A stretch of DNA of 64,000 nt from Stegostoma tigrinum (Eukaryota), in contig NC_081370.1 in the NCBI RefSeq assembly GCF_030684315.1, positions 10,237,148-10,301,147 of the forward strand, given 5' to 3'. Numbering within the stretch: the stretch's first letter is position 1; every line of letters starts with the position of its first letter. Positions 6,791 through 37,487 of the stretch are shown piece after piece. Below the pieces are notes generated by a model. It made no database searches. It was given only the letters and a program-made list of their open reading frames with translations, and was not told the DNA's origin. Both the position numbers and the translations under genes were made by a program.

Positions 6791-6807
6791 GCTTCATATT
6801 TCTGGTG

Positions 6808-6909
6808 CTTGGCTTTTGTGCTCCTGAGATGCTGCTTGGCCTGCTGTGTTCATCCAGCCTCACATTTTATTATCTTGGAATCTCCAGCATCTGCAGTTCC
6901 CATTATCTC
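6808..6909 (+). mobile_element. Single Penelope-terminus copy without ribozyme core
   Basis: Homology starts at GCTTTTGTG (6812). TSD TCATATTTCTGGTG at 6794-6807 and 6910-6923. Confidence 0.85.
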
Positions 6910-7869
6910 TCATATTTCTGGTGGTCTTTTGTGTCCTTCACAAACTTGGTCTCCTGAAATGGTTCAGAGGGAGCAGGCATTTATTTTTCTCTTTATTCTG
7001 TAATAAGATACTTAGTCATTAACAAATCTGTTATTTGTTGCCAAATTCTAATTGCTGTTAAACTGGTAGCATTCTAAGCCATTTCAGAGGACAGTTAAGA
7101 GTAATTTACATTGCTATCGATCACACGTAGACTAGATAAGGACAGCAGGTTTTCTTCCCAAAAGGACATTAGTAAACCAGTTGGGTTTTACAGCAAGGGG
7201 AATCATTACTGAGATTAACTTTATGTTCTCGGTTTATTAATTAACTTAAGTCCCATCAGCTGCAGTGCTCAATGCCCATCCAAGTATCTATGTTGAAACC
7301 TATTCTCACCTTGAACAAGTCCTCAAATGTGACCTTGATTTTCTTTGCTCCAAGGAGAGCAACCTAGGCATCTTCAACCTTGTAGATGGAATCCCTAATC
7401 TGTGAAACCATTGGGGTAAATCTTATTATGGCTCACTGAGATAGGCTGCTGAAAATCAGGCTCCACCATACCCAGTGTTGTCACAAAAATTAGAGATTTT
7501 AAAAGTATGCAAAGTTCCCCGATTTGCCTGATTTTCAGAAATTCCTGGAAAAGGTCATCAGGTCTGAGGAAGGTTCACTTGATCTGAAACATTAATTCTG
7601 ATTTCTCTTCACAGATGCTGCCAGGCCTGTTGAGCTTTTCCAGTAATTTCTATTTTTGTTTCTGATTTATGCAGCATTCATAGTTCACTGAGTTTTTACC
7701 TGATTTTTAGACCCTGCTTAATAGAAGGCATGGACCAGGTTCCTGCTCTAAAGCAGCATTATTATTTATGACAGGGAACTAGACCGTTGTCATATAACAC
7801 TTGTAATTAAAATTCTATCCCCTTATACCACTCTCCTTAGACTGAGACAGACAGGGTAAGCTATGTCAC

Positions 7870-10700
7870 ATCCTCAAAAAATTCCAGAAGATTTGTCAAG
7901 CATGATTTTCCTTTAATGATCTATGCTGACTTGAACCAATCCTGTCACCATTTTCCAAATGCGAGTTATTACATCCTTGTTAATTGACTCTGGCATTTTC
8001 CCCACCACTGATAGCCAGGTTAACCAGCCTATAATTCCCCTTGTTCTTTCTCCCTCCTCTTTTTTAAAAATGTGGGGTTACATTAGCTATATTCCAGGCC
8101 ATTGGATCTCTTCCAGAGTCAATAGAATGCTGGAAGATGATTAGCTATTTGTCCACTATTTTAAGCACCACTTTCCTAAGCAATCTTCAAGCCCTGGGGA
8201 CTTATCAGGTTTTAATCTCAAGAATTTCTGCAAGACCATTTCCTGACTAATGAGGATCTCCTTCAGTTTCTTCTTCATGCTTGATCATCTGTCCTACAGC
8301 ATTCCTGAAAGGTTATTTGTGTCCTCCCTAATGAAGACCAATCCAAAGTATTTGTTCAACTGGTTTGCCATCTATTTGCTGCCCTTTATGAATTCACCTG
8401 ACTCTATCTGAAGGGACCTACATTTGTCTTCACTGGACTTTTTGCCTTCACAGTTTTTATGTTTTCCACAATCTTATTCTTGTATTCTATTTTCCCTTTG
8501 CAAATTAAACCCTTTGACCTGCTCTGCTGAATTTTAAATTTCTCCCAGTCCTCAGGTTTGCTGCCTTTTTTGGCCAATTTATATGCCTTCTCTTTGGCTT
8601 TGACACTATTCGTGATTTCCCATGTAAGCCATTTTTGAGCCACCTTCCCTCCTTTACTTTTATGCCAAACAGGGATATCCCATTTTGGAAGTTCATCCAT
8701 GTGTTCTTTAAATGTCTGCCATTGCCTATCCACCATCAACCCCTTAAGTATCCTTGGCCAGCTTAACCTAGCCAATTGATATTTCATATCATCAAAGTCA
8801 GTTTTATTTAAGGTGAGGACCCAAGCCTCAGATTTAACTGGTACTCTCCATTTCAATGAAGAATTCTACCATATTATGGTCAGTCTTCCCCAATAGATCT
8901 GTCACCACAAAGTTGCTAATTAATCCTCTCATTACACAATACCCAGTCTAGAGTGGCTTGCTCTTAGTTGGTTCCTTGACACAAGCTTGTGTTTCCAGAT
9001 TGACCTGTTGGACTTTAACCTGGTATCATGTGATTTCTGACCTTTTCTACCCGAGTCCTACACCAACATCTCCACATCTTCACATATTTGTCGAGGAAAC
9101 CATCCCTCATACACTACGTGAAATCTTCCTCCATCACATTACTTCCTGTTTAGTTAATTCAGTCAATGTGCAGATTGAAGTTACATATAATAACTGCATT
9201 CATCTCTAATTTTCTGTTTGATGCCAACCTTACAACTACCGTTTAGTGATCTGTACACAACTCCCACTCATGTTTCTTTTTCCTTTGGTGTTCTGCAGCT
9301 CCACCTATTCAGATTCCATATCATTAAGGCTAATGTCCTCCATTAGTATTGTATTAATCCCCTCCTTAACCAGCAACTGCACCACACCTCCCTTTCTTTT
9401 CCATCTATCTTTCCTGAAAATTGAATACCCCTGGATGTTGAGTTTCCATACTTGTATCACCCTGAACCCTGGTCTCTGTGATCCCAATTACATCCTATCA
9501 ATTAATAACTGTCTACACAGTTAAATTCATTACAAATGCTCCTTATATTGAGAAACAGAGCCTTCAGGCTCATTTTTTTGACATGCATTGCCCTTTTAGA
9601 ATTATGATGTAACGTGCCCTTTTTGATTTTTGTTTTTGCTTTCTCTGTCCACCACTTTCACAATCCCTCTTACTTTCCTTTGTTTCTGTCTCCACTTTAC
9701 TTCCCTCCGACTTCCTATACTGGTTCCCATACCCTCTGCCATATTAGTTTACACCTTCCCCAACAGCACTCACAACCAATCCCTCGGGACATTGGTTGAA
9801 GACCTGCCCAGATGCAGACTGTCCAGTTTATATTGGTCCTACCTCCCCCAGAATCGGTTCCAGTGCCCCAGGAAATTTGAATCCCTTGCTCTTGCACCTT
9901 CCTTCAATCTGTGTATTCGTCTTATTCATCTTGTCATTCTTACTCTAGCATGTGGCACAGGAAGCAATCCTGAGATTAATATCTTTTGAGGCGCTACTTT
10001 TTAGTTTAACTCCTAATTCCCTAAATTCAGCTTGTAGGACCTCATCCTTTTTATTTATCTCTATCATTTGGGCCTGTGTGCACTACCACAGCTGGCTGTT
10101 TACCCTTTTTGACCAGAATGTACTCCAGCTGCTCGAAGATACCCTTGACCCTTGCATCATGGAGGCGACATACTTTCCTGGACTTTTGTGGCTGAAGAAA
10201 TGCCTATCTATTCCCCTTATAATTGAATCACTTATCACTGTAACTGTGCCACTTTTTTTTCCTGCTCTCCTGTGCAGCAGAGCCAGCTATGGTGTCATGA
10301 ACCTGACTGCTGCCGCCTTTCCCTAGCAAGCCATCTCCCCAGTAGTACCCAAAACGGTATACCGGTTTTGCACAGAGATGACTGCAGGGAACTGCATTGC
10401 CTTTCGGCTTTTCCTCTGATTGGAGATCACCCATTCTTGATCTCCCTCAGTAATGTTTAGCTACTGTGTGACCAACTTATTGAACATGCTATCCGTGATC
10501 ACGGATACTCCGAAGTGAATCCAGCTGCAGCTCCAAAGCCTATCAAGCGGTCAGACAGGAGGTACAGCTAGACAGAATTCCTGCACATGAAGAAGTCTGG
10601 GACATCAGATGGGCCCCTAAATTCCTACATTGCACAGGGGGAGCATTACACAGGTCTGGGATCTTCTGCCATGACTTAATCCTTAAGTTAACTTAACACT
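7870..10700 (-). mobile_element. CR1 LINE 5' portion (ORF1 and endonuclease), degenerate
   Basis: LNIQGYSIFRKDR.KRKGGVV..LVKE (APE domain); linker peptides in ORF 8404..8856. Confidence 0.8.
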
Positions 10701-11004
10701 AGTAGCAAAGCCAAGAGAAAATGAGAGAAAAGAAAAACTGCTTATAAGTCTCCCACCACTCGCTAACCTCCTGGCTTTGACTTCACAGTTCAATTTCTTT
10801 CTACTTCTCCTTTACCCTTGTGCCTTCAGCAGTTGTGGTAGCTCACTTCTCCTCCAACTGCCTTACTTCATTGCTGGTCACCGTCCTCACCAAAGTCCGG
10901 TATTCACCAAAGACTAAGCTTAATTTTTTTAATATCAAAATGTATTTTATTCATAAAATATATCTTGGTATATCTTTGCTGCGAGTGCTGGATAGGTTGT
11001 CCCA

Positions 11005-12985
11005 CTGAGGCAAGGAAAGGATGGTAAAGTGAAGGAACCTTGGAAGACAAGACATGTGGAACATCTAATCAAGAGGAAGAAGGAAGCTTATTTAAGGTTG
11101 AGGAAGCAAGGATTGGACAGGGCTGTAGAGGGTTACAAGGTAGCCAGGAAGGAACAGAAGAATAGACTTAGGAGAGCTAGAAGAGAGCATGAAAATGCCT
11201 TGGTGAATCGAATTAAGGAAAATCCTGAGGCATTCTTTACTTATGTGAGGAGCAAGAGGATGGCCAGAGTGAGGCTAGGGCTGATCAGGGATAGTGGAGG
11301 GAACTTGTGCCTGGAGTCGGAGGCGGTAGGGGAGGTCCCTAATGAATACTTTGTTTCAGTATTCACCAGTGAGAGGGACCTTGTAGTTTGTGAGGACAGT
11401 GTGAAACAGGCTGATATGCTCGTACAGGTCAATGTTGGGAAGGAGGATTTGCTAGAAATTTTGAAAAACATGAGGATAGATAAGACCCCTGGGCCAGATG
11501 GGATATACCCAAAGTTGGTACAGGAAATGAGGGAAGAGATTGCTGTGCCTTTGGCAATGATCTTTGCGTCCTCACTATCCACTGGAGTAGTACCAGATGA
11601 TTGGAGGGTTACAAATGTTATTCCTTGCTTAAGAAAGGGAATAGGGATAGTCTTAGGAATTACAGACCAGTCAGTCTTACTTCTGTGCTGGGCAAATTAT
11701 TGGAGTGGATTCCGAGAAATAGTATTTATGATTATTTGGAAAAGCATTTTTTGATTAGAAATAGTCAGCATGGCTTTGTGGGGGGCAGGTCATGCCTCAC
11801 AAAACTTACTGAATTGTTTAAGGATGTGACAAAACACATTGATGAAGGTAGAGCAGTGGATGTGGTGTATATGGATTTTAGCAAGGTATTTGGTAATGAG
11901 GCATGAGATTCAGTGAAATGTGGCTGTCTGGATGCAGAATTGGCTGTCCAATAGAAGACAAAGGGTGGTCATAGACGGAAAGTAATCAGCCTGGTGCTCG
12001 GTGACCAGTGGTGTTCCGCAGGGTTCTGTTCTGGAAACTCAGTTGTTTGCGATCTTTATAAATGACTTAGGTGAGGAAGTGGAAGTGTGGGTTAGTAAGT
12101 TTGCCAATGACACGGAGGTTGGTAGAGTTGTGGATAGTGTGAAGGGCTGTTGTAGGTTGCAGTGGGACATTGACAGGATGCAGAGCTGGGCAAAGAAGTG
12201 GCGTATGGAATTCAAAGCAGAAAAGTGTGAAATGGTTCATTTTGGAAGCTTGAGTTTGAATGCAGGGTAGTGGCAGGATACTTGGCATTGTGGAGGTACA
12301 GAGGGATCTTGGGGTGCACATCCATAGACCCCTCAAAGTTGTGACCCAAGTTGATAGGGTTGTTAAGAAGATGTATGGTGTATGGCTTTCATTGGCAGGG
12401 CGATTGAGTTGAAGAGCAGTGAGGTTATGCTGCAGCTCTACAAAACCCTAGTTAGACCACACTTGAAATATTGTGTTCCGTTCTGGTCACCTCATTATAG
12501 GCAGTATGTGAAAGCTTTAGCAAGGGTGTGGAGGAGATTTACCAGGATGCTACCTGGACTGGAGGACAGGTCTTTTAAGGAAAGGTTGAGGGAGCTAGGG
12601 CTTTTCTCATTGGAGTGAAGAAGGATGAGAGCTGACTTGATAGTGGTGTACAAGATGATGAGAGGCATAGATAGAGTGGATACCCCGAGACTTTTTCCCA
12701 GGGCAGAAATGACTATAACAAGGGGGCATAATTTTAAGGTGATTGGAGGAAGGTATAGCGGAAATGTCAGACGTAGATTCTTTACTCAGAATGGTGGGTG
12801 CGTGGAAAGCATTGCCAGCTGTGGTAGTGAAGTCAGATACATTGGGGATATTTAAGTGCCTCCTGGATAGGCAAATGGATGATAGTAAAATGTAGGGTTT
12901 GCAGGTAAGTTTGATCTTAGAGTGAGATAGTAGGTAGGCACAACATCATAGACCGAAGGGCCTGTACTGTTCTATGCTCTATATA
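11005..12985 (+). mobile_element. CR1 LINE ORF2 (RT) and 3' UTR, frameshifted
   Basis: KTPGPDGIYP, NYRPVSLTS, QHGFVGGRSCLT, SGVPQGSVL, SKFAND. Confidence 0.92.
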
Positions 12986-13661
12986 TACATAATCACAAAC
13001 ACAGTTCTGCTGCATATCAAGGAAACAAACAAACAATTGATTCTGTCCAAAAAACTAGACTTATCTTAAACATAAAAGACTATATTTATGTAAATTTGAG
13101 GCACTAAGAAGGTCTGATAACTGAATGGACCCCCATTTACTTTCAGCAGGAAGACCTCAAACAGTGGTCTTTCCCCATTATGCATTGTTGACAGCTGCCC
13201 CGAGTTTTAGTGCATCCCTCAGCATGTTGTCCTGGATCTTTGGAATGTGGCAGTCTGCAACACTCAGTTGAGGTCAACTCCTTGTTCTGGAAAACCAACA
13301 AGTTTCAGGCAGACCAAAGACCATCTTTCATTGAATTGAAGATCCTCTAGGTGCAGTTGATGTTTGTCACACTGTGTCCCCCAGGGAACAGACTATAGAA
13401 CGCACAGTCCCATGTCACAGAGCTGTACACACTCAGACGTCCAGCAGCATTTCCACCACAGAGCAGCCCTTCTAAAACTAGTTGCTCCACTATATTTTGC
13501 TCCCCTTTTATTCGTTCCCCTCCTCAGTTGCTGTAACTGAGCCTACTTGTCCCAGAATACTTCTCAGCAGTGCCCTCTGTTTGATGCTTGAACTGTTCAC
13601 TGACACTAACTCTTCTGTGCCCCCCCTCCTCGGTTGCAGTGACTGAGCCAATTCCTTTGTT

Positions 13662-13810
13662 AGATAACAAAGTGTGGAGCTGGATGAACACAGCAGGCCA
13701 AACAGCATCTCAGGAGCACAAAAGCTAGATGCTGCTTGGCCTGCTGTGTTCATCCAGCTCCACACTTCGTTATCTTGGATTCTCCAGCAACTGCAGTTCC
13801 CATTATCTCT
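13662..13810. mobile_element. Penelope-terminus fold-back mini-element lacking the ribozyme core
   Basis: The left arm ends at AAAAGCT (13726) and joins an inverted right arm. Confidence 0.85.
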
Positions 13811-14140
13811 CTCCCTCCAAGAAACCACCTCAGTTGCTTCTCCGTAGCGCCCCCTATTTCCCTCTTGAATAAGAGTGTTGCAGCAGCAGTTTGCCAATGT
13901 TCTGGGACATTTTTAGAATCTAAGGATTCTGAGAAAGATTGCTTTCAGTGCATCCACATTCTCTATAGCTACCTCCTTTAAAATCCTAGGATGTAATCCT
14001 TTGGGTCCAGGCGACAGTGACTTCTAGCCCTGTTGATTTCCCTGTTACTTTTTCCTCCAGTAATAGTTATTGTGTTTCTTTCCTCCTCAACTCCCTTTAT
14101 ATCCTTGATGGGTGGGAAATTTCAGTGAAGCTAAATGCAT

Positions 14141-14237
14141 TTCTGAAGAAGGGTCTCAGCCCAAAACATCAGCCTTCCTGCTCTTCTGATGCTGCTTGGC
14201 CTGCTATGTTGATCCAGCTCTACACTTTGTTATCTCA
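14141..14237 (+). mobile_element. Single Penelope-terminus copy (degenerate hammerhead)
   Basis: CTGAAGAAGGGTCTCAGCCCAAAACATCAGCC... followed by the family body. Confidence 0.8.
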
Positions 14238-14914
14238 AATTCATTGACCTTGTCCACATGTGAAATAATTGAACTTCCATCAGTCTGCTACCTCTTGGCC
14301 CTTATCCCTCAAAACCTCTCCTATGCATGTGCCAGTCCAAATATCTTTTAAATGTTGTAATTGTACCTGCCTCTGCCATTTCCTCTGGCAGCTAGTTAGG
14401 TATGCACTTTGCATGAAAAAGTTGCCCCTCAAGTCCCAATTAAACTTTTCCCCTCCCAATTAAACCCATGTCCTCTTGTTTTGGACTCCCCTAACTTTGG
14501 GAAAAGACCTTGGCAATTCAGCTTATCTGTGCCCTTCATGATTTAATAAACCTCTGTAAGGTCACCCCTCAGCCTCCTATAGTCTAGGGAAAAGAATCCC
14601 AGCCTATCCAGCTGCTCACTATAACACAAACAAGTAGGTCCTTTCAATTTGCATTGTGGGATAAGTTCATGCACAGTTCTGAAGTGTCAATAAAATATTG
14701 AAACCTGTAATTCATTTTTAATTTATTTGTAACAATGAAGAACAATCATTGGCTTCTATGAAGGGCAAATGATTGCAGAAACAGATTATTATCCAAACGA
14801 TGAAAGCAGTAATATCCCTCAGAATGCTTTTGTGTGCAGCATTTGGTGAAATTCTCATACATTATTTTGTCTTTTTAAAATGTCTTTTTCTGTACTGACA
14901 TTTTTTCCCTTCAG

Positions 14915-15047
14915 AGGTGTAAATTTGAAACTTGCAACTATGAGAAAAGCCAAGATTTTATGTGCAATTCTCTTGGAGTGTATGCTCGTGCTTGTGCCAT
15001 AAAAGGCCTAATATTGACAAACTGGAGAAATGCTGTGGATGAATGCA
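14915..15047 (+). CDS. MUC6: Mucin-6-like exon 2 (C8 domain)
   Basis: Polypyrimidine tract + cAG, donor GTAAGT. RCKFETCNYEKSQDFMCNSLGVYARACAIKGLILTNWRNAVDEC, resembling MUC6 RCVYQACNYEE...GWRSSVDNC. Phase 0 to 1. Confidence 0.92.
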
Positions 15048-16201
15048 GTAAGTGTTCACTAGCCACTATTTTATTCTGGCTTCAAACTCTTACGAGTACT
15101 CATAATTGTTCTTTGTATTCTTTGCATGTGAGTACTGCGGGCAAGGTCAAGATTTCCTGCTCCTCCCTAATTGCCCTTGATTAAATAGTGGTATCCAACT
15201 TCTTGAATTGCTACAATTCATGTAGTGTGTACAAACTCACAATTACATTAGGGAGGGACTTGCAGATATTTTGATAGTGAAAGAACAGTGATCTAGTCTA
15301 AATGAGGACAGTGTGCAACTTAGAAGGGAACATGTAGATATTGCTGTTCTCAAACATTTGTTACCCTTCTCTTTGGTTTTAGAGGCTGCAGGTTTGCAAA
15401 GTACTGTTCAAGAGGCCCTGGCGAGTTGCTGCTGTATATCTAGTACATTGCTGCACTATATGGCACTTATAAAACAGATGAATTTATAAAGTGGTGGATT
15501 GGGTTGGGAGTTAAGCAACCTGGTTTGAGTTGGATGCTATCAAACTTCTTAAATGCGGTCAAGCAAGTACTGGTTAAATTTCTTAGTTGAGGTTCACCTG
15601 AATAGCTTATGCCTAACAAACCAGTTTAAGAGTCACATTCCTATTTTGTTGTTGATAACTATAGCATGAAACATTACAGCCAGTTGTATCCAAGTTAGAC
15701 CGGCAGTTGAAAATCTGACTTTAACCCAAAAGAGACATATCCAAAGGGCAACAGTATTCACCATTTTGGATTACAGCCAATTGAGCATAGAAAGTGGAGA
15801 CAGACGTTTGATATTTTCTGCACATTTAAACATTCTGAGGTAAATTTACAAGGAGGTTAGGAGATTTTAGGCAAAGCCAGAACACCTTTCAAGCCGGATT
15901 TTGCATCATTTCGCTGTTGTGCTGTCCATGTTGTAGACCTGTGAACCAGACTGTCAAGATTTTTTGATGTTGGAGTTTCATACGTCCCTGAAGTCAGATT
16001 TAGAGCTAACATTCTTTCAGCAATGTGCAACCAAAAACCGTTTCTCGTTGTAACGAAACTGTTTTTAGATGTTTTTGCATTGCTTGAAATTCCTTAGATA
16101 TGTTTTATAATTCTCAAGTTGTCATGTAACCAATCAAAAAAGTTTTTTTTGTGTTGTGCTGTACCTTAGTCTAGTTCATAAACTGTGTTTTCTGCTTTCA
16201 G

Positions 16202-16451
16202 AAATTTCTTGCCGTGGCCTTCAAGTTTACAGTTATGATTCCAAAGCGTGCAACCGCACCTGCTTTTCATTGTCGAATTCAATGTTTGAATGCACTGAGA
16301 GTGGAGTTCCTGTAGAAGGATGCAATTGCCCACAGGATACTTTCCTGGATAATACCAGTACTTGTGTGAAGGCATCCAGCTGTCCATGTTTTTTGCAAGA
16401 TGGTACAATTATACCTGCTGACAAAAGTGTTAACATTTTTGAGCAACTATG
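16202..16451 (+). CDS. MUC6: Mucin-6-like exon 3 (TIL domain)
   Basis: tttcAG / GTGAGT. ISCRGLQVYSYDSKACNRTCFSLSNSMFECTESGVPVEGCNCPQDTFLDNTSTCVKASSCPCFLQDG...; TIL cysteine pattern. Phase 1 to 2. Confidence 0.93.
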
Positions 16452-16699
16452 GTGAGTTGAATAATTAATATAGTTTGCTTGGTTCAAGGAACAACCGTTA
16501 AAATGTGAATCTTCTTGACTTATCAAACAGGTACAAATGTAATTGAGCCATTGTGAGCAAATTAAGCAGCTAATAGCCATCATAAATTAGGACCTTGACC
16601 TGTTGCTCTGTTGTTCTGCACATGAGGTGGCTTATGAAATATTCCCCAGTTACCTTTCTATTGCATCAAAAAAGTAATTTTGTAGTATATAGCTTGAGT

Positions 16700-17368
16700 A
16701 TTGCTGAAAAAGACATGTTGTCAAAATGTTTTGTCTTGCACTGATCAGGACTTATGCAAGAATTTAAGGGGGTCAGTGTTTTATGTTCTGTGAAAAGAGA
16801 GTGGTCAGTAGACTCTGACATTGCTCAGTGAAATGAACCAGCGAATGACTGTCACTTGTTTTCTTAAATGGAAGCTTAGGTAATGTGTGTACATGTTCTT
16901 TCTGTCTGTGAAGAACAAGACCCTGTGTTTTAATATTTGTAGCTACGAGTAAGTTCAGGTGCATCACACTACGAGCTCAACTACTCATGATCATTTTGTA
17001 AACGTCCAATCGAGGAATCTCATTTGATGTCAGACACTGTGTTATATATTTTGACTGTACAGATTGGTTTTATACACTTAGAACTTTGCCTGTTGCAAGT
17101 ATCTGAAGATGTTCTGTTCGTCAAACAAATCAGTAAACCTGGTCGAGATAGTAGGAACTGCAGATGCTGGAGGATCTGAGATAACAAGTTGTAGAGCTGG
17201 AGGAACACAGCAGGTGAAACAGCATCAGAGGAGCAGGAAGGCTAAAGCACAGTCAGCAGTCTGTTCACATGTGATATAAAACTTTCCCCTTTACATTAGC
17301 AGTTGTATGAATGTCTTGATGAGTAAAAGGTGAGAAACTTTGACAAAATGTGCTCCTTTTTCAGCAAT
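16700..17368 (-). mobile_element. Old Penelope-like relic with inverted terminal segments
   Basis: Inverted similarity between 16700-16751 and 17313-17368. Internal minus-strand peptide HLNLLVATNIKTQGLVLHRQKEHVHTL resembles GIY-YIG C-termini. Confidence 0.55.
17145..17243 (-). mobile_element. Single Penelope-terminus copy without ribozyme core
   Basis: Family homology stops at GGAAGGCT (17243). Confidence 0.8.
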
Positions 17369-19149
17369 GGATTAAAGAGTTTGAAAGATATTAGTCATTT
17401 TTATCAATAATGATCTAAAGTGATTATTTTTGGTGCAACAAGGAGAGATGATTTTCATGTATTTACCACTTCATGAGTTTCTGTGATGGGATACGCAGCC
17501 TATTGAAAAGCTTGAAACACTTATGAGAACCCGAAAGGAGCAGACTTGGGTTGTCATATTGGATTGTCCTTCTTGTTGCCAAGTATAACCACCAATGACC
17601 AGAAAGTGATTTTTCAGTGAATTTCTGCAGAGAGAGAAATCTATTTCTTTTCCCTTTTACCAAAAACGTGTGCTTAGGATTGTTTAAAGGGATAAACATT
17701 TACGTTTTCACATTATATGTTTTGTTTGGTTTGACCAACTATGTATTCTCATTGGATGAGTTTTATTTTATAATGAATAAATAATGCTGTATTTTTTTAA
17801 AAAGCTTGGTTGAAATTGTGCATTATACCTTGGAGTAGCTAGCAGGACTCTGCACCACAGGCATTGAATCACAGTTAATACAATGGTGGAGATTGAGTGG
17901 ACAGTCGAAAAATTGAATCTGGTTCTGACGGTGAGGAATGCTGAAGCAGCTGCAGCTCTCGGTGAGGCTTTACAGGGTGAATCTCAGAGACAAAGTGGTA
18001 GCCAGGATGCAGTGTCCAGTGAGATCTCCGTTAACATAGCTGAAGCCGTTCACCTTATCCTTTCACAGGCACTCTGACTGCCACTGGGTAAAGACCACAT
18101 CAGGTTTGGGTAAGACTAGAAGTATTCAACAACCAGTGGCCAAGGGCTGGATTGAGATTACAAGTGATCATGGTAATCTGGGCTTCAATGAAATGGAGCA
18201 GGTAAAATTTGTAATGAAATATCTATGTGAGAAAGCTTGTTGAAAAATACTGGGTGGAGGAACAAATATTCAAAGAAATCAACAGAGAATCTTTGAGGTT
18301 CTGGGAAGGGTGTTTAGGGACAGTGTCAGTCTGTCCCAGCTGCAATACAGTTTTGATGACTATTTGCAAGTCAAAGGGAAGGATCTGGTCTTTGCTTCCC
18401 TGGAACTGATGAAGTTAATCAGTCCTCTAAACTTGAATCTTTCCTGCCCACCATCCAGGTACATACTGCAGAAAATTTGTCTATCCAAATCAGTGAGTGA
18501 TTAAGATATCTGAATGGAGATGAGGAGGGTCAACAGTATCAAACCATGGTGGTCTTTCTATGATGCATTGATTATATCATTAAGATCAGTGGGAAAAGGT
18601 GCACTTCTAAGATGAGGAAAGAGCCCACCATCAGGGAGATGACTGTAGATGTAGATCAAATGTTGATCTTAGTCTGAAGAGACAGGCAAAACGGATTGCA
18701 TTGCAATTGCAGATCCATGTCTTGCTGCCCTATTGTGACAGTAAAATCAAGCCTGAGCCTGCAAGAGGAATACCCCAAAAATATTCTGCAAACGGAATGG
18801 GACTGGGTACTTCAAAAGAGGCTGTCTTCAGCAACACAAGCACTACTGATTATAGGGAGTGATCCCCATACGTTGCACCTCAATTTCTGTCCCCTCACAA
18901 GCCTGGCAAGAGTAATGGAAACACTGAGCCAGCCACAGGCTTTTAACAAATGAAAGGATTCACATCCCAAGTCTTTTTGGAATGTGGGTAGGAAATCATC
19001 AAAGACTCACCAGTGCACTTATGAGGGTACTCCAAATCTGATCCAGAGGGTTAGAGTGCATATAGGTTCACCTTTGCATTCCATCTCATTAGAGGACCTC
19101 ATGCACTTCATTTGGTTGCTGAGTACATTGGGAGATTTCACAACCAATT

Positions 19150-25935: not shown

Positions 25936-25936
25936 A

Positions 25937-26294: not shown

Positions 26295-26341
26295 CTGAAA
26301 GTGAGACTTTCCAAGGCTCGCCACTTACTTCACCAGGAAGA

Positions 26342-26414: not shown

Positions 26415-26559
26415 AGAGCCAAGTTACATAGTCACCATTAGGATAGCCTTTTATTTCCATTTCTTTACTGAATTCAAATTTCGCCATCTTTTGTGGGATT
26501 TGAACTCGGGTCTCCCGAACATTTGCCTGTCCAGTGCCATTACCACTATGCCACTGCCT

Positions 26560-26843
26560 TTCTAAAGAGCATCGCACCAAGACCTATTCCCTTAACCCTG
26601 CATTTCCCATGTCTGACACACTCAACCTGAACATTCCTGGGCACAATGGGCAATTTAGCATGGCCAATCCACCTACCATACACATCTTTGGACTGTGGGA
26701 GGAAACTGGAGCACCCAGAGGAAACTGGCAGACACTGGGAGAATGTGCAAACTCCACACAGACAGTCGCCCGAGGGTGGAATTGAACGCGAGTCCCTGGT
26801 GCTGTGAGGCAGCAGTGCTAACCACTGAGCCACCATGCCGCCC
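26560..26843 (-). mobile_element. HE1-like V-SINE, tail truncated
   Basis: Same head and central domain. Confidence 0.85.
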
Positions 26844-29800
26844 TCCAAAGGTAAGGTACTGCTGTGACCTTTGTGCTGCACAGAAAATACTAAATTTGAA
26901 ATCTTAAAAAGAGGTCAGTTCTAAATAGGATTCCGATTTCTAACACGTCATCATCCAAGTTGCAAGTACGCAATGAAAATGACTGCCACCACCCCTGGAG
27001 GGGGCAGAGTAAGTGTTTCCTTCTCTGACGGAGGGGACTTGACTTTTGTGCAATCTGAAGCTCTTCAAAGGCAATAGTATTAAACAGAAATGCACCCATT
27101 AAGCTGAAAGACCCTTATAATCACAAAATTATTTAAATGAACCTTATACATGGATGACTGTGTTGACAAAAAGTCCTGACACTGAGCTCCCTTGGCATCA
27201 TCATGTAACATTACAAATCAATTTAACTAATAGCCATGATGCACAAACAATGGCCTGGAACCATTCACCTTAGTTGCAAAAATAGCATAATCTTCCAAAA
27301 TCCCAGAATTTACACAAGGATTAGGAGCTGCTCACATTAAGTAGCCATTTGTTTTTTTTATCTGCAGTGCTGCCTTTCTTGGGTGATGGGGAAGTGCCAG
27401 AGTGTTAGGAGAGTTTCTTAGTGCTGCCAATGTGTGCCAAAAGACTAGAGCAACAGTTGTCTGAGTCAGAGCAGTGATGTACAATGTCAAAGTAGAAGCA
27501 TCCCATTAGCCTCCTTGTCAGGGTCCTCCAGTCCTAATGTTAAGAGAATGCTGTTAGTTATGTATGCTACGACAATGATTACATTGCTGAGGAGCTGTTT
27601 GTTTTCAGTTTTGCCCACATGGCCAGTGAAACCATCCCTAGTGGATCCAGGTACAGAAGCAGTTGTCTCTGTGGCTGCTGCACTAGGGGCTTTTATGCGT
27701 ATTGTTGAGGAGCACAAATGTCCACACGCCCAGGACCAGCATCAGATTATAGCTGATGTAAAGTTTACCCCTACTACAGAATTTGTAGCCCTCATTATGC
27801 AGTAAAGATTCAAGGAGTCACAACTGCTTTCCTTTCATGGAATACTGTGCAGATGAGAGAGGAGCTAGAGTTCAAAAGCCCATATTATGCTAACAACAGT
27901 TCTGTAACGAAACATCTTCTTCCACTGGGACTGACAATAGATATAGAGTGGCTCCTCCACATTAGGTTTCTGTGCAGGCCAACGAAAGGAGAAATTATTA
28001 GAGAAACTTAGCAGGTCTGGTAGCATCTGTTAAGAGAAACAGTTAACACTTTGGGTCCAGTGACTCTTCATTAGAACTAGACCTAAAATGTTGACCCACC
28101 TTTCTCTCCCCTTTGTAATCTCACTTACAAATGCAGTTTAATGCTTTGCTCTTTCTGTGTTTAATTAGTTAAGGCTACAAGATGAATTGAAGCCTTCACA
28201 ATGTCCAATTCTACCTCATTCAATTCTGACAAGGGAACATGGTAGTTTGGAACATGGAGTTTCAACAATCACTCACATAGGATTAAAACATTGAGTAATG
28301 GTAAGGGTGGCCAGTGTCTATCGCTTTATTTTTGTAGTGATAGCTAAAATGGCATTCACTCAGTCAGATGGGTGAACATATATTTACAAATGTGATTAAA
28401 GCAGAAATTCTGTTGTCAACATAGCTTTTGTTCTCCCTCTTGTCCCCAGAGTGATTGCCAGACTTGAGTTTCTTTGCTCATCTGTTTATTTCAGGAATTT
28501 GCAAGGGGAACTATACATATCCAAACATGCACAGTTCTATTGATCAATTACATAGTGTTCTGGTAATACTATTCCAGTATTTTGGGATTGGTAGAATTAT
28601 CCAGTTATGTAAGCATACCATATACACCTCATACTACCCAATCACAATTCATCTTATTGACATCATTAACACTTCTTATTTCACATAAGGTGCTAAATTA
28701 ATTATTAATCTCTTTCATGCCAGCTAGACATTGAAAACATACAGGTAGTAACCAGTTTCTTAGTGCCGGTATTTGAACTGTTTCTGAACCTTGATGTATT
28801 TTCTCCTTTCAGTGATGGTGTATTGAAAATGAAATGTCACTCATCCTGTCAATGTGCCCTCAGAAGGTTGCCTTCTTTCTTTTCCTCTAACAATGCCCAA
28901 ATGCAAGGTTGGACTATGCAACTGGGTGGAAGGACTCCTACAGTGGATTCTTTTGGCTTTTGAGTTCTGAGAGTTTGTAACTAGAGCCCAAATGTGCAGA
29001 GTGTGTCCTGCCTGGATGCAGATTACCTTCCTTGGGTTTGAACTCCCATAGTGGGGGTGGAAATGGAAAGCCTAGCCGCCTCTGGAGTAGACTTTCAGAG
29101 GCCTGTATCATCCAGCTGGGTGCTTACTGGCACCAGCTAGTCTGCTTGCGAGGAAGGGGAACCCAGAGTAAAGTTCCCTCGGCCCCACCACTTTGTTGTG
29201 CTGTACTGCCAAGCAATTATTTAAGAAATTCCTTTTTAAAAGTTCTTAAAATACACAGAAGGGTTTAAAACAAAATAGGGGAGTTGTGACTCCTGTTCAC
29301 TTATTTGTAACCCAGGTGACTTCTCTAGTTTGAGGATTGCCAGTCTTTATGATCTTATTGTGTCAGTACACTTCCTTCACCACTGTCACATGCAGGCTCC
29401 AGCTTGAGACTTGAAGACCTTCAAATCCTGAGGGATGCACGACTCTGCCAGTGATTCAATATTCTAAGGCATGGTACTTTGTTTGGAAAGCCTCTGTGTT
29501 ACCGAATGAGTCAAAACCAGACCTGGGTCACATGTAAACTGTATAAACCATGTTGTATTGGCTGCAGAAGAGGGGATTCCCTAGGGATTGGACAGTATGT
29601 GAGAAACTGCCTCTTCAACTTCAGGTTCTTTCTTTCATGAAGATAGGATAACAAGACTGCCTTACCTGCTTTAACCTCTTAATTTACCTACTGATAATGT
29701 AGGAACAGTGCCAGAAAGCAGCCAAGGTCATCCACTTCAGTAGGTCTCAGGCAGCTAGTAATGGCCGTGTGGGTAACAGAATTCAAATTAGCAAAAGAGG

Positions 29801-30559
29801 CCATTCTGAGATTCAAAGGGTATATTCAACATTGAACAGCACAAGCCATGATTAGGTCTTTGCAGTATTGTTTGTTCTGCTACCGCTCCCCACCACCCCC
29901 CCTAACCCCTTTAGGGTTGGTCACCTTGTTTAGATCTTGTTCTGACAGCCACCTTCTCCTTAACTTATGTGATGTGATGTTTGAACTTTAGGGTACAATT
30001 TACCATCACTGCATCATATAGGTATGTTCTCACTACATCTTTCGTCTTGAGATGGAAATAGTCGTTTGTGTCTTTCCACATTGGCCCACAGATGATACAT
30101 CACATAATAATGTATTGCCAAGACAATTCTGCACTCTCTCTCAAAAGATTGGTCCTGAGATATTACTTTATAAATACATCCTCTAACTATTTTTCTTCTA
30201 TCCTATGTTGCTACTGCCTCATCATTTACTAATAAAGTGGCAACATCCTGTTGTCTGGATGTGGAAACAGAAGCTCAGTCGGAGGAGGAGACACTGGAAG
30301 ATATTGAGCTGTATCAGTTGGGAGCCCCTACATGTTCTTGTATCTCAATGAGGAGTGGTACTTCAGGATTTTTAGTAAGGAAATTGTCAGGGAGCTATAC
30401 AATCTTACAACTCATTTGAGCACTGAGTACAACTGACAAGAAAAATCACAATGAAATCATGTATCCATACCATTTAAGGAGACAACATTGAGACACAGCG
30501 AGCGTCAGCTTGTTTGCTGACCAGTGGTATAGTTGATAGACACACAAACCTGGTTTAAT

Positions 30560-31050
30560 AAGGTGAACTAATATATCTGAAATCATAGATGGAAGTATTT
30601 TTTGACCTTGTGTTCCTTTGGAAAGAATACTCATTGCATGAAGGGAGAAGAGTAATATTCCAGAAAACACATCAAAAATGTTTTTGACTAGAGCATAAAA
30701 ATAAAAAAAAAATGCCAGACCCTCATTGCTGACATGCCTCATCTACCCTAAGGCAAGTTACCATCCCACGAATGTTTAAAGGAGGGCAATGATTGTATTG
30801 TTGATTTAGGGAATCATGGCTACCTATGGTTGCCAAGATCGAAGATGCTATCAAGTGCACTTTTCAGTGCAATTGAGCAGCATTATAAGAAAGCTCTTAT
30901 GTACATGAAAGTACAATAGAAAGCATCTTTGGAATGCTGAAGCAGGGACTACTTAGTTGGACAATTCCAAAGGGATACTTTAGTATAAGCATTTAGGAGA
31001 TTTCTAGAATAATTGCAATATGTAGTGTGAAGCACAATAATAATTTGTAG
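30560..31050 (+). mobile_element. PIF/Harbinger transposase relic
   Basis: Fragmentary IESIFGMLKQ...ISRIIAICSVKHN and LGNHGY, resembling Harbinger IERxFGxLKxRF...IxACCxLHN and LLGDSGY. Confidence 0.5.
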
Positions 31051-31450
31051 TTGGCTGTTAAACACTTTTTTCTTGCAAAACTGTTATTTCTGATGTGGAT
31101 AATTCATAGTTAGTTGTTAAACACTGTATCTTCATGCAAAAATGTTGTTTCTGATACCCTTCATGAGTGAAATCAGTAAACCTGAGATCTCTGTTTGAGT
31201 TTTATCCCTATGCTAAGTATGAAGAATTTCCTATCTTGACATAGAACAATAAAATCCTTTCAATATGAAGGTCTATGTAGTCTTTCGAATCCATACCGTC
31301 CTTGGTTTTGGTTTTTCAGTAACATCAGAAGATATTGGGGTTTCAGAAGAATTGGAAGCTTCAGTGAATGTCTCTTGGATCCTACTCTATCTGAATTTAT
31401 TCTTGATGTTTTTCCTCCTGAAATGGAGAAGTGCATGTGAAAATCTTCAT

Positions 31451-31583
31451 TTCCAAAGAAGGATCTAGGCCCGAAACGTTAGTAGCCTTCCTGCTCCTCT
31501 GATGCTGCTTGGCCTGCTGTGTTCATTCAGCGCTACACCTTGTTATCTCAGATTCTCCAGCATCTGCAGTTCCTGCTATCTCT
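31451..31583 (+). mobile_element. Single Penelope-terminus copy
   Basis: ...TCTAGGCCCGAAACGTTAGTAGCCTTCCTGCTCC... followed by the family body. Confidence 0.8.
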
Positions 31584-31832
31584 GAATCTCCTTTTTGTGT
31601 TTCTGGGATGTTCCTTTATTGGAGCAGTTAACTAACAATTACTGTATCTGGATTTTAACTACAGCTTTTAAATAAATTGTGTTTTGCTTAACATCAAATA
31701 GCTTGATCAATGGTATTGCATCTGCGACACATTACATTTGCCTTCTAAATAAGAAAAAGTTACGGTCTAGCCTACCTTCTTTAAATATTTTTGAAGGGGT
31801 CTGATCTGGTCCATAACAAGGTTGCTTCAATA

Positions 31833-32143
31833 TGGGCAGCATGGTGGCTCAGTGGTTAGTACTGCAGCCTCACAGCGCCAAGTACCCGGGCTCGATTCCC
31901 ACCTCCGGGCGACTGTCTGTGTGGAGTTTGCACATTCTCCCCGTGTCTGCGTGGGTTTTCTCTGGGTGCTCCGGTTTCCTCTCTCAGTCCAAAGATGTGT
32001 AGGTTAGGTGGATTGGACATTGCTAAATTGCCCGTAGTGTTCAGGGGTGTGTGGGTTATGGGGGTTGGGTCTGGGTGGGATGCTTCATGAGTCGGTGTGG
32101 GCTTGTTGGGCCGAGGGGCCTGTTTCCACACTGTAGGGATTCT
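31833..32143 (+). mobile_element. HE1-like V-SINE
   Basis: GGTGGCTCAGTGG A box, GGCTCGATTCCC B box, tail GGCCTGTTTCCACACTGTAGGGATTCT. Confidence 0.9.
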
Positions 32144-32318
32144 AATCACTGCAGGGAATCTAATCAATATCAGATTTTCTGAACAAATGTTGGGGAGACA
32201 TTCTTAGGTGAGAAGGCAGTTCTGATGGATACCACTATTTCATTTAAAGAGAGGACATTATTATATGAAAGAAACAGTAGAGATCAACTAAAAGGTCAAA
32301 ACACTGATGTCACCCTTG

Positions 32319-32448
32319 GAGACAGCAAGAACTGCAGATGCTGGAGGCTTCAGCCCATCCTGATGAAGGATCATGAGCTGAAACGTCAACTTTCCTGCTC
32401 TTCCGATGCTGCCTGACCTGCTGTGTTCCTCCAGCTCCACACTGTATT
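32319..32448. mobile_element. Penelope-terminus copy with short inverted piece
   Basis: CTGATGAAGGATCATGAGCTGAAACGTC at 32360-32387 plus the family body. Confidence 0.75.
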
Positions 32449-32613
32449 AACTATGTCATCCTTCCTGTACTTTTCCTCCACTGATATTATGTTTCTTTCT
32501 ATATTATGACCCCATCCTGTGGACAGAACTGCTAGAGTTGATTTACCATGTTCTCTAAGACAGTCTTCACAACTTTCCTTAAATGACAGGCAAACAGGCA
32601 TTCCCTACAATAT

Positions 32614-32814
32614 GAGACAACAAGGTGTAGAGCTAGATGAACACAGCAGGACAAGCAGAATCAGAGAAGCAGGAAAGCTGACATTTCAGGTCTAGAGCCC
32701 ATTTCTGAAGAAAGGTCTAGACCTGAAAAGTCAGCTTTCCAGTTCCTCTGATGTTGCTTGGCTCTACACCTTGCTGTCTCAGATTCTCCAGCATCGGCAG
32801 TTCCTACTATCTCT
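32614..32814. mobile_element. Penelope-terminus fold-back mini-element (diverged)
   Basis: Inverted arms; CTGAAGA-A-AGGTCTAGACCT-GAAAAGTC on the + strand. Imperfect flanking direct repeat CAT.CCCTAC.ATAT. Confidence 0.8.
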
Positions 32815-33298
32815 AACAATTTCATCCCCTACGATATATTCACTTTATCATTAGGTTAAGCAATACTTATGTGACTGGCCTTGCTGTCTGATGACATATT
32901 TCACAGTTTTTTAAATCAATCTTTATTACTTGACAATGTCAGATCAAATCTAATGGCAGGAAGAACTTTTCAGATTTGACCCGATGGTCCTTGTAACAAA
33001 GCTATTGGCTTTTCCTTGGTGCACATTCTTTGGGGCTCCACCATTTTCTACAGCAGCTTTACAACATAGATAAAATAACAAGAAGGAATCATTAAAGCAG
33101 TAATTGACAATGTGCACCAGGTAGATATCATTTGTGATTAAACAACTTTTCCGTGTGAGTACTATCAAGGGCAAATTTCTAATTAGCACAACTTTCCTTC
33201 AATTTTTCTTTGTTTTCTAACTTTACAGCTGAACAAAAGTGGAAGTTAAAAGATACATTACATAATTACTACAATTCTCATTTTATTTCTCTTCCCAG

Positions 33299-33351
33299 CC
33301 TTTGTAGAAATGGAAAAGTTGATTGCTCTGACAAATATTTTACCCCTGAAG
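33299..33351 (+). CDS. MUC6: Mucin-6-like exon 4 (E module)
   Basis: ttcccAG / GTATGA. (C)LCRNGKVDCSDKYFTPE, a CxCxNGxxxC motif. Phase 2 to 1 fits both neighbours. Confidence 0.88.
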
Positions 33352-33638
33352 GTATGAATCATTTCATTTGAATTACTCTAAAATCAGATGAGTATATGAA
33401 ATACACAATATGAAAGTAATCTACCTGTTGTATCTTGCATCTAAATTTTGAATTTTAACTCCTCTCTCAATATCTAATCCAAAGTGCTTGAAATATGGCA
33501 ATCCTGATTGTTGATGGAGTAACACTAATAATTTTAAACTGAAATGAGTCATTAGCCATTTTAATGTATTAATTTGACTTGCTATGAGATATCATTGTAC
33601 GTATTTTAGTAACATAAATGTTAAATATATTTCCGTAG

Positions 33639-33748
33639 AAATGTGTCAGCATCCTAAGATTTACTTCAATTGTGCAAATGCAAAAAATGGTGAATATGGA
33701 GCAGCTTACCAACCAACATGCCAGATGCATGCTACAGAAACGCTTTGT
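33639..33748 (+). CDS. MUC6: Mucin-6-like exon 5 (TIL' N-terminal half)
   Basis: ccgtAG / GTGAGT. MCQHPKIYFNCANAKNGEYGAAYQPTCQMHATETLC, resembling MUC6 CQAPKTFKSC...FGAACAPTCQMLATGVAC. Phase 1 to 0. Confidence 0.9.
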
Positions 33749-35504
33749 GTGAGTAAAATGTAGTATAGAACTTTAGGGCTTATTCTGAAAAAAATAAAGA
33801 AAAAGAGCCAAATCACAAAAACAGATTATCTGGTCATTATTACAGTGCTGTTTATGGAAATTTGCTGTGATGAATTGCTATATGTCTTTTCTACATGACA
33901 ACAGTCCAAAATGATGTCATCATTTGAGAGTGAACTCAGGTCTTGAACTGTGACTGTTCTAAAAAAATGTAAAAATGTTCTGTAATTTCTTTTCTCCCTT
34001 AATCCATATTTTATTCTTGTAGCTTTGATCACAATAACAAGGTTAGTACTAAAACAGCTACTCTTCTGCTGGAGATGAAAATGCTGAAGATACTCATAAA
34101 GATAAAAATTCAGCCTAATATTTAGAGTAGATACTATATAAGATCATTGTTCCATTGCTAATTTCTTATTAATATCCTCTTTAGTTTAGACTTATTCTTT
34201 CTTAAGTACTGACCAAAAAAACTTTGTCTTACTTACATTAAACAAGCCCCTTATCTGATCGTGATATAAGGAGCAATCTACAATCCATGCTAATATATTT
34301 CCCCTGATCCATGAACTGTAATTTTGTATAACTCCTTGTCTGGTATCTTAAGAAACCATTTTTTGAAATTGCAAAATGCACCTTTGTCTACACAAGAAAT
34401 TACAACCTCAAAAATCTTTAACAATTACATTAATGGCAACATCCCCATCACAAATTTGTTTCAAATCTGCCTGTTCATAAAATGCTGTTCCATGTGTTCT
34501 ATTATCATATCTCTGTTAATAAATTCCCGCATTTCTTAACGGCTGGTATCAGGCTGACAAGCCTAGAGTTTCTGCTTTCTTTCCCCTCTTTCTTGAATAG
34601 AAGAGTTACATTTGCTATCTTCTAATTCATGGGGTTGTCCTGGAATCATAGGAAAACTGGAAGATCAAATCCAGTGTATCCACAATTTCTGTAACCAGCT
34701 TCTTTAAAGTCCAAGAATTGTTCAAAACCTTTGGCCATCAAGTTTGGGGAATTTGTCAGCTTTTAGTTTAATCCACTTCTCTAGTACTGTTCCTTTGTTC
34801 GTACTAATTTCTCTTAAATTCTTCAATCTCATTATATACTTAGTTATTTACTGTTTCTAGAATATGTTTTGACCACTGCAAAGTGTGTACCCTGTCTCTG
34901 ACATTTTCTTATTTATTATAATTTTTTTCTGTCTCTGCCTACAAGGAATGCATGTTCACTTTTCCTCATTGCTTCCTTTTTACATGTCTTTGGAAACTTT
35001 TTCTTATTTTTTATTTGCTATTTTTCTTGCTTTTTAGCTCTCACTTTCTATTTTCTTCTGTTTCAAAATTTCTTGTCATTTTTACTGAATTCTAAGTACT
35101 CCCAGTCCTCAAACTTGTGCACCCTTATGGCAGTATTGCAAGTACTTTAATCTAATACGATCATTAACATCCCTTATGTAAACCAAAGAACTGTGGATGC
35201 TGAAAACCTGAAACAAAAAACAGAAATTTCTGGAGAAAGTTCAGCAGATCTTGCAGCCGCTGTGGAGAGGAAGCAGAGTTTCAGGCCGGGTGATCCTTCA
35301 GTTTTTAATATCTCTTGCCAGTCACAGTTGCTCTTCTTTCAAAGTGTGATTTTATTCCTTATGAAAGTTTAGTTGTTATGAATTAAATGTTTGAATGTTT
35401 CTTTTAGTTTCTTAGGTAACCTTTGCTATCTTGTCCTTCCCATCTGCAGAGTTTGCTTTGTTCAGATTTAAAACTCTGGTTAAAGAATTAATTAAATGAC
35501 CTTC

Positions 35505-35700
35505 AAAAGCAAAAACAGAAATTGCTTGAAAAGTTCAGCAGGTCTGGCAGCATCTGTGAAAAGAAATCAGAGTTACTGAGTCACTGGACCAAAAATATTA
35601 ATTCTGATTTCTCTTCATAGATGCTGTCAGGCCTGATGGGTTTTTCTAGCATTTTTTGTTACTGCTTTTGTTTCTGATTTACAGCAGTTCTTGTGGTTTA
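35505..35700. mobile_element. Second Penelope-terminus-like family, fold-back copy (relatives near 7560-7700, 27980-28110, 35180-35300, 42660-42790, 45740-45840)
   Basis: Shared body ACAGATGCTGCCAG.CCTG.TGAGCTTTTCCAG; inverted arrangement here. Confidence 0.65.
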
Positions 35701-35834
35701 TAAATAACTTGCAAATTTAAAATAAAATTCGATCAGGTTATTTTCACTTCTTTCCGAGAAACTCCTTTACTAGATTGCCATTACAACGATACTGTTTTGT
35801 TATGCAACACTAAATCTAAAGGAACCTGTTTCCC

Positions 35835-36058
35835 AGATAACAAAGTGTGGGGCTGGATGAACAGAGCAGGCCGAGCAGCATTTTAGGAGCAGAAAAGCTG
35901 ACGTTTCGGGCCTAGGCCCTTCATCAGAAAATGATGAAGCATCTCGGCCTGAAACGTCAGCTTTTGTGCTCCTAAGATGCTGCTGGGCCTGCTCTGTTCA
36001 TCCAGCCCCACACTTTGTTACCTTGGATTCTCCAGCATCTGCAGTTCCCATTATCTCT
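35835..36058. mobile_element. Penelope-terminus fold-back mini-element
   Basis: Inverted arms, intact hammerhead core on the - strand. TSD GAACCTGTTTCCC at 35822-35834 and 36059-36071. Confidence 0.9.
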
Positions 36059-36899
36059 GAACCTGTTTCCCGTTTGGCTACTTTAAATACTTATACAGAA
36101 GATTATTTTAAATTCATTCGATGAACTCATCCTGCATACTATTATTGTAAATTTGGTTTGCCTGGCCCATATGAAAACGGCATAGGGCATATAAATTATT
36201 CATTCCAGTACTTCAACCCTTCGTTGCTTACAGGCCAATTTGATTGTAACTTTTAAGTTCCATAACTAGCATCATTTCCACTTACTAGCTTTGATCTATC
36301 TTGTATAATCAGGAAGTCTTCGCCCTCTTTCCCTAGTGTTGGTGCCAGGAAATAAAATTTCCCTGCCTCCCAGTATCACTCTTGCAATCACATATTTGAC
36401 CTAATAATATTACATGTTATGTTTTTGGGTTTCTGCTTCTACTTTTATCTCTGCCATGCCCTTGTTTTTTGTTGCTGTTGCTGTGCTCTTGATCTAGTGC
36501 TGTTCCTTTTTACCTACCAACGTCTTGGCTCTCCACTCATTTCTGTCTATGTTCTCCAGGCCAAGGCTTTCTGCCAGTCTCATTGATCTCACATACCTCA
36601 TTTATTATTTTTATTCCAGCTGTGTTATTTGTTTAATATATTCATGCTGTTTGTTTGTCTCCCATCACCTTTATTGTGCTCTCAGACATCAGCCACTACT
36701 AGTCTTATCCTTGTAGTGCTGTCAGGTCTTTAGCAGTAATGCTTTTAGGTATCTGCTGCTGTCTTCTGTGCATCAGTCCCTGTGTTTTTTTAAAGTGGTC
36801 TTTGCTCATCCCTAATGCCAATATGTGGATTCCTACATTATCACATTTTTCAATTAAATGCACTTGATTCTGATTGTCAATTCACTTCTTCTTCATTAG

Positions 36900-37051
36900 T
36901 TAGCAACCAAATGTATTTCCGGCTGTATATGTCCATACGGAATGGTATTGAATGAGAGAGAGCAATGTGTCTATCTTCAAGACTGCTCTTGTGAATTCAG
37001 TGGTGTGTACTATCATCCCCGTGAGACAATAGTGAAAGAATGCCAGAAATG
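36900..37051 (+). CDS. MUC6: Mucin-6-like exon 6 (TIL'/E')
   Basis: cattAG / GTAAGG. LATKCISGCICPYGMVLNEREQCVYLQDCSCEFSGVYYHPRETIVKECQK(C). Phase 0 to 2. Confidence 0.9.
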
Positions 37052-37273
37052 GTAAGGACCTATACATTGTACTTAAGTAATGTAAAACTGCTGTCTTAAG
37101 TGACTACTATAATAAGTGCGTTAGTTTCACTAGCAACATAGTGTTCTCCTGAATTGATGTTTCTTTTAACTTGCTGTTAAATACACAACAATATTTAAAA
37201 TTGCTTCAAAGATTCACTTGAGTGGCCAAAATTACTTGGGCTTGGAGTGGAAAATAGATATACTGAATTTTAT

Positions 37274-37487
37274 AGATAACAAAGTGTGAAGTTGGATGAA
37301 CACAGCAGGCCAAGCAGCATCTCAGGACTGAGATGCTGCTTGGCCAGCTGTGTAGCTTTTGTGCTCCTGAAATGCTGCTTGGCCTGCTGTGTAGCTTTTG
37401 TGCTCCTGAGATGCTGCTTGGCCTGCTGTGTTCATCCAGCTTCACACTTTGTTATCTTGGATTCTCCAGCATCTGCAGTTTCCCCTA
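37274..37487. mobile_element. Penelope-terminus fold-back mini-element with internal 39-bp tandem units
   Basis: Inverted arms; units AGCTTTTGTGCTCCTGA.ATGCTGCTTGGCCTGCTGTGT start at 37354 and 37393. TSD ATACTGAATTTT at 37260-37271 and 37488-37499. Confidence 0.88.

Follow-up and report, generated by a model that had tools for sequence, protein, structure and literature searches.

Minimal hammerhead ribozymes have been described in the terminal repeats of metazoan Penelope-like retroelements, for which Cervera and De la Pena (2014) proposed self-cleavage of the precursor RNA, with evidence in vivo absent and activity in vitro low (PMC4209133); the role of these hammerheads has been described as unclear (PMC8557442). 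For the anole Poseidon element PAc, Frangieh et al. (2024, PMC11167929) describe uncut RNA as the chief substrate and the ribozyme as protein-assisted. In R2 elements, the cut site of a ribozyme resembling that of hepatitis delta virus (HDV) has been traced in genomic 5' junctions by Eickbush et al. (2013, PMC3774820), and template jumping has been tied to untemplated additions (PMC8857657). The present analysis concerns a Penelope-like repeat in a stretch of 64,000 nucleotides (nt) of the Stegostoma tigrinum genome (NCBI RefSeq assembly GCF_030684315.1, contig NC_081370.1, positions 10,237,148 to 10,301,147 of the forward strand; hereafter, the window) and its copies elsewhere in this genome. 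Three kinds of genomic signatures suggest that the hammerhead of this element probably cuts a minority of the element RNAs in the germ line and that the reverse transcriptase (RT) runs off the cut and jumps.

Positions are numbered from the predicted cut, +1 being the A that follows GUC and -1 the C that corresponds to hammerhead C17. Counts from pattern searches are exact matches over the whole genome; listed matches, classified by hand, are the first 100 places in contig order and hence a non-random set. The genome sample consists of 147 stretches of 10 kb, arbitrary and evenly spaced (1.46 Mb readable); with the window it yields 402 arms, of which 373 were kept after removal of window copies, scores below 30 and arms at stretch edges. 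Extrapolation from this sample gives about 800,000 arms in 3.2 Gb. Junctions were counted per subfamily, those named below being A, B and C.

The repeat is the 3' terminal repeat of a Penelope-like element, which in its sequence features fits the Neptune type. In longer copies it runs on into a frame comprising an RT, a cysteine linker and, at its end, GIY-YIG; a 5'-truncated parent element (locus L062, 6123-8966, minus strand) has a stop-free frame of 947 amino acids with a YIDD motif, and the family looks young. The Pfam matches, RVT_1 on this frame (E = 5e-5) and GIY-YIG at window positions 60079-60963 (E = 8e-4), are both under the curated cut-offs; the GIY-YIG motif is visible in the translation, as is, between the RT and the endonuclease (EN), the CX2-5CxxC zinc-finger linker that has been named as a feature of EN+ Penelope-like elements of the Neptune type (PMC8557442). 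Two further Neptune-type traits, inverted 5'-truncated copies and an optional tail of 30-40 bp, are both present: 171 of the 373 sampled arms are inverted, and the 3' ends of the arms fall into two groups about 35 nt apart, +62 to +68 and +97 to +100, which match the two internal RT starts that give the tail in PAc (PMC11167929). Upstream of the core, at about -57 in L062, there is a pyrimidine tract ending in CAG that resembles a 3' splice site; the Penelope intron has been reported to end near its hammerhead (PMC4209133).

The terminal repeat matches the features of a minimal type I hammerhead with a predicted cut after C17. Column counts over 219 copies show CUGANGA, GAAA, NUH, an extra base before 10.1, the G10.1-C11.1 pair and a palindromic 15.2-16.2. 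Helix II has 4-5 pairs, with 196-211 of the 219 copies paired at each position, and one pair appears as U-G, U-A and C-G. The metazoan hammerheads of PMC4209133 share the core, the extra base before helix II, G10.1-C11.1, the palindromic helix III stub and the position in the terminal repeat; what differs here is that genomic junctions mark the bond and that helix I has just 2 bp, as described for the Drosophila virilis variant.

The first signature comes from head-to-tail joins, examined with the upstream tail fixed and the restart position left free. For the tail ending at +68, the next unit restarts at +1 in 87 of 100 junctions, or 55 of 64 loci, among the matches listed (128 in total). Restarts of the same tail elsewhere number 10 in total at -17 to -2, 40 at -35 to -20 and 45 at +9 to +24, about 11 of the latter from another family. 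The A is often preceded by T, G or C at these junctions, and unambiguous +2 starts are rare. The tail ending at +100 restarts at +1 in 44 of 62 junctions (31 of 48 loci) and is joined to the upstream region in 54 junctions, about half of them long-overlap joins. An upstream sense-strand piece is joined at 7 of 30 retrieved +1 loci, compared with 0 of 60 at two AG controls (P = 3e-4). A secondary restart peak, with about 12 of 45 junctions on several contigs, is seen at +11.

Some of these joins are repeated into arrays that lie within a single target duplication, as in the nine units of locus L268. The five units of L292, also within one target duplication, have four different ends (+98 to +102) and all restart at +1; in general, the 3' ends of units vary within arrays while +1 stays fixed. 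Mixed junctions occur in 13 of the 27 retrieved multi-unit loci, which represent 23 independent insertions. Array units are 31-107 nt long and lack the hammerhead core. The re-entry point is nearly constant inside an array and differs among arrays (+31, +38, +42, +46, +68, about +100), a pattern suggesting that each event has one fixed fragment end. Another re-entry region, likewise joined to +1, is found in both subfamilies some 170-190 nt downstream of the cut (L151, L164, L183 and L202). A 38-nt-unit insertion in a duplicated region (L288-L291 and L305; G000 C9, C10, C81 and C82) has 9-17 units depending on the paralogue; this locus is a minisatellite born from a single insertion. A telomeric or satellite role of this paralogous insertion is unsupported, and the 253 array-pattern matches were not accepted as independent events, the five retrieved loci being one insertion in the duplicated region. 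Non-LTR (long terminal repeat) retrozymes also form tandem repeats from Penelope terminal repeats with type I hammerheads (PMC7229834; bioRxiv 10.64898/2026.07.22.740005). However, retrozyme units keep the ribozyme and use circles, whereas the +1 array units are without the core and their junctions vary. A retrozyme identity was rejected given that the units of the +1 arrays have no complete hammerhead and that junctions vary within arrays, and a rolling-circle origin of the arrays is disfavoured by the mixed junctions.

The second signature is an extra G, which separates the +1 ends from a more frequent upstream start. The end at -32, which prevails among short copies, accounts for 2736 filtered junctions (39533 and 46533 are window examples) and leaves only four bases 5' of the ribozyme core. 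A G precedes 79 of 100 listed -32 ends, or 55 of 76 after dropping those for which the partner arm could be the template, and 25 of the 40 junctions of the +68 tail to starts at -35 to -20. At +1, among the matches listed, the extra G is found at 0 of 87 tail junctions and at 12 of 64 ends that are not fold-backs. An untemplated G has been ascribed to cap copying in L1 and SVA insertions (PMC3287187). Because the extra G is frequent at -32 and absent from the 87 tail junctions at +1, -32 is likely a capped transcription start and +1 an uncapped end. In the genome sample, the extra G is not enriched over the whole interval -35 to -23, with 15 of 52 starts in subfamily A, 5 of 28 starts in B and 5 of 46 starts in C, and no excess is seen in older subfamilies, so that the cap reading rests on the subfamily A starts at -32, -30 and -26. 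The -32 position also fits a TCT-type initiator. In two loci (L302 and L303), the extra G recurs at every junction between tandem units beginning at -32, so that capped ends can also be reiterated.

The third signature consists of untemplated scars at the bond itself. In 35 copies, an insertion lies between -1 and +1 with both of these bases intact; 21 of the copies contain 2-8 untemplated bases, A-rich in 20 cases, 9 have single bases and 5 have duplications. At control bonds, only duplications or single bases are found, with 0 of 33 insertions untemplated at +16/+17 and 0 of 4 at +45/+46, which has the same C^AGC context and a comparable pool of copies (about 96,000 compared with about 142,000 at -1/+1). 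With the position left free within a 13-nt window, 27 of 100 listed insertions are at the cut, of which 20 resume at -1 and 7 at -2, -3 or -5; in the control 13-nt window, A-rich insertions are 2 of 100 listed, about 40 rows there belonging to other subfamilies or being unrelated. In the scars, the two flanks of a single bond are marked, which is what an enzyme crossing an RNA break would be expected to leave.

The positions of 5' ends, on which the earlier note had built its claim that genomic 5' ends fall on the predicted cut, would alone make a weak case for the cut site. Among the 373 arms, 138 start at -35 to -23, just upstream of an intact core, 105 extend beyond -60 and 6 start at +1, where the local mean is 1.34 per position (Poisson P = 0.003); the enrichment is thus beyond chance, but these ends are a minor class, about 2% of arms. 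Genome-wide, subfamily A has 751 junctions at +1, compared with 113 at +2 and 164 at -1, and subfamily B has 67 at +1 and 22 at +2; starts at other AG dinucleotides, used as controls, number 497 at -14 and 724 at +17, with 29 of 100 listed matches at +17 being 1-nt indel variants. With estimated corrections for filter strength and pool size, the +1 rate is about 2.3 times that at the AG controls and about 5 times that at +2. Since starts at the AG controls occur at about 40% of the rate seen at +1, raw +1 counts were rejected as proof. Where arms are inverted, the caveat of the earlier note on microhomology was well placed: one fold-back with a 3-nt AGC overlap makes up 33 of the 100 listed +1 junctions, and AG microhomology accounts for much of the +1 excess in this class. 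Among solo copies, about 5 of 30 loci are at +1, compared with 2-5 of 30 at controls, the numbers being small.

The copies in the window that bear on these signatures, and the parent element, are the following:

6794 to 6923, plus strand: solo copy (+2 to +100, at 6812-6910) preceded by a 4-nt filler (6808-6811), in a 14-bp target duplication (6794-6807 and 6910-6923).
13662 to 13726, minus strand: inverted arm, +1 to +65, with its start at the predicted cut site.
13727 to 13810, plus strand: partner arm, +17 to +100, of the same head-to-head insertion as the preceding arm.
17145 to 17243, minus strand: subfamily B copy, +1 to +99, starting with AGCC and thus without the AGCT palindrome; no target duplication is seen flanking it.
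31448 to 31583, plus strand: subfamily B copy with the full core, start at about -33, and a 3-nt duplication near the cut site (weak evidence).
37260 to 37499, no strand assigned: single insertion of the reiterated class in a 12-bp target duplication, composed of an inverted arm (+12 to +65), a partial unit (+14 to +39), the 37354 unit (+1 to +39) and the 37393 unit (+1 to +91).
39533 to 39630, plus strand: contrast copy that retains the ribozyme region, with the core at about 39537-39564 and the cut predicted between 39564 and 39565; its start at -32, preceded by an extra G, is likely a capped one.
59760 to 60963, minus strand: 3' part of the parent Penelope-like element, with the coding end, including the zinc-finger linker and GIY-YIG, at 60076-60963, a pyrimidine-rich 3' region and the hammerhead.

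Four of the 25 window arms start at +1 and one at +2, so that the share at +1 is above that of the genome. The individual starts given in the earlier note are borne out: the arm at 13662-13726 ends in AAAAGCT and so starts at +1 on the minus strand, the copy at 17145-17243 starts at +1 on that strand, both tandem units (37354 and 37393) begin at +1, and the copy at 6812 begins at +2 behind four unmatched bases inside its target duplication. The three extra bases reported at 31451 are present as well, but they are a simple tandem duplication of TAG beside a C-to-T change and were rejected as a cleavage scar. The filler at 6808-6811, CTTG, also precedes a near-+1 start in locus L296 and may be what remains of a second copying round from the tail. 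Two other elements were noticed in the window. A tRNA-like head of a short interspersed element (SINE) begins at 31836 and presumably resembles shark HE1, which would suggest a cartilaginous fish host, and broken frames at 61165-61748 (minus strand) resemble, by eye, an RT region of an LTR retrotransposon.

These observations are most probably explained by a scheme in which most RNAs would start capped at about -32, remain uncut and yield the common core-containing copies, while some would be cut into a piece with an uncapped 5' end at +1 and a piece with its 3' end at -1. Reverse transcription would begin internally, near +65 or +100, and stop at +1. The enzyme might then jump back repeatedly to a downstream point of the same fragment, giving +1-anchored arrays, or jump to the end of the 5' fragment, giving an intact-looking copy with a scar. 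The A-rich spacers could be untemplated additions or oligo(A) on RNA 3' ends; being read as A on the sense strand, they may represent oligo(A) on RNA ends paired by the last T of the complementary DNA (cDNA). From the genomic signatures, we infer that the cut is made by the ribozyme itself, probably assisted by protein or in a dimer form. The proposal of the earlier note that the insertions are fossils of self-cleaved RNAs is partly supported in that an uncapped end at the predicted bond is indicated by restarts, the missing cap G and scars, but not as a general rule.

Several findings weigh against this scheme. Helix I has 2 bp rather than 4-5, a third pair being present in 19 of 219 copies; the predicted lowest-energy fold, with a stem base at +2, pairs the core with the cut site and would be an inactive form; and Rfam gives 0 matches at the gathering score in the window. 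Cleavage of the anole element is dispensable in vitro, and no RNA-seq reads end at its site (PMC11167929). Arms that start at +1 are few, as indicated above, and only 8 matches are copies with their 3' end at -1. A shared A leaves +1 and +2 ambiguous for at least 28 of the 55 loci with the +68 tail, and the signal is weaker in older subfamilies, with 0 of 13 and 6 of 17 tail junctions at +1. Finally, some arrays grew after insertion, as in the insertion that has 9-17 units in five paralogous places.

Among the alternatives, the one that survives best, although unlikely, is that no cut occurs and the RT stalls at the base of a hairpin, the 3' strand of which ends at +2, adds bases and then resumes or jumps. 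The predicted fold indeed pairs -28 to -23 with -4 to +2, hammerhead helix I also spans +1 and +2, and the 7 of 27 listed scars that resume at -2, -3 or -5 rather than -1 are compatible with stalling. However, stops at +3 and +2 are rare (113 junctions at +2 against 751 at +1, with +2 seen in 1 of 64 tail loci), at most 4 tail junctions fall at -9, the position of the stronger stem II, and a pause poorly explains 3-8 untemplated bases between an intact -1 and +1. Still less probable is cleavage of the bond by a protein nuclease, either a host enzyme favouring C^A steps, which are labile, or one guided by the fold. Genomic data do not tell which catalyst acts, and the anole ribozyme needed protein (PMC11167929), but the bond coincides with hammerhead C17, and the same C^AGC at +45/+46 is scar-free (0 of 4 in the pool of about 96,000, against 21 in about 142,000).

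It is very improbable that microhomology and DNA-level events, with AG, AGC and AGCT attracting junctions of truncated cDNA and unequal exchange growing the arrays, are the full account. The fold-backs (33 of 100 listed +1 junctions), the numerous starts at AG controls (724 and 497), symmetric AGCT joins in 7 of 20 array loci and the expansion seen after insertion all speak for such events, which do contribute for inverted arms. Nevertheless, the head-to-tail class is found at 7 of 30 loci at +1 against 0 of 60 at AG controls, the A at -5 to -7, with equal overlap, draws 1 of 100 among the matches listed, and the mixed junctions inside arrays, the blunt joins of tails to +1 and the untemplated scars are left unexplained. 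The least probable alternative is that +1 is a second transcription start, for which an initiator-like TC|AG with its pyrimidine-purine step at -1/+1 and the promoters within Penelope terminal repeats (PMC2377424) could speak, but the extra G (0 of 87 tail junctions and 12 of 64 non-fold-back ends at +1, against 79 of 100 at -32, among the matches listed) and scars with intact upstream sequence contradict it.

Partial cleavage by the hammerhead followed by jumping, the reading preferred here, differs from the described systems in several respects. The main text on PAc reports no reiteration or scars (PMC11167929), and the present element is Neptune-like rather than of the Poseidon type. Cleavage in R2 fixes the full-length 5' end (PMC3774820), whereas here a hammerhead produces a minor internal end (6 of 373 arms) that seeds tandem arrays. 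No published report of +1 restarts, of the cap-G contrast or of scars was found in the open literature, supplements (including that of PMC11167929) and subscription papers being outside this search. Penelope enzymes are the sister group of telomerase, and repeated copying of one bounded RNA segment by an RT is also known for telomerase and for DRT2 and DRT10, a likeness in outline only. Unlike in telomerase, it would be the end of a cut RNA that sets the boundary, re-entry differs between insertions, and the arrays are a rare by-product of transposition.

Altogether, the junctions speak for cleavage that is real, though partial, and they pinpoint the bond, the probable start site and the points of re-entry, which makes the question of cleavage directly testable. 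On balance, this genome may well hold a fossil record of both hammerhead cleavage in the germ line and repeat addition by a telomerase-related RT, with up to nine or more copies made in one insertion, stitching by oligo(A) and seeding of minisatellites, in which DNA alone suffices to distinguish caps from cuts. The tests based on scars and on the cap G are applicable to any genome. Reiterative copying takes a transposon to tandem repeats in a single step and, in an enzyme of the sister group of telomerase, has a bearing on the origin of repeat addition.

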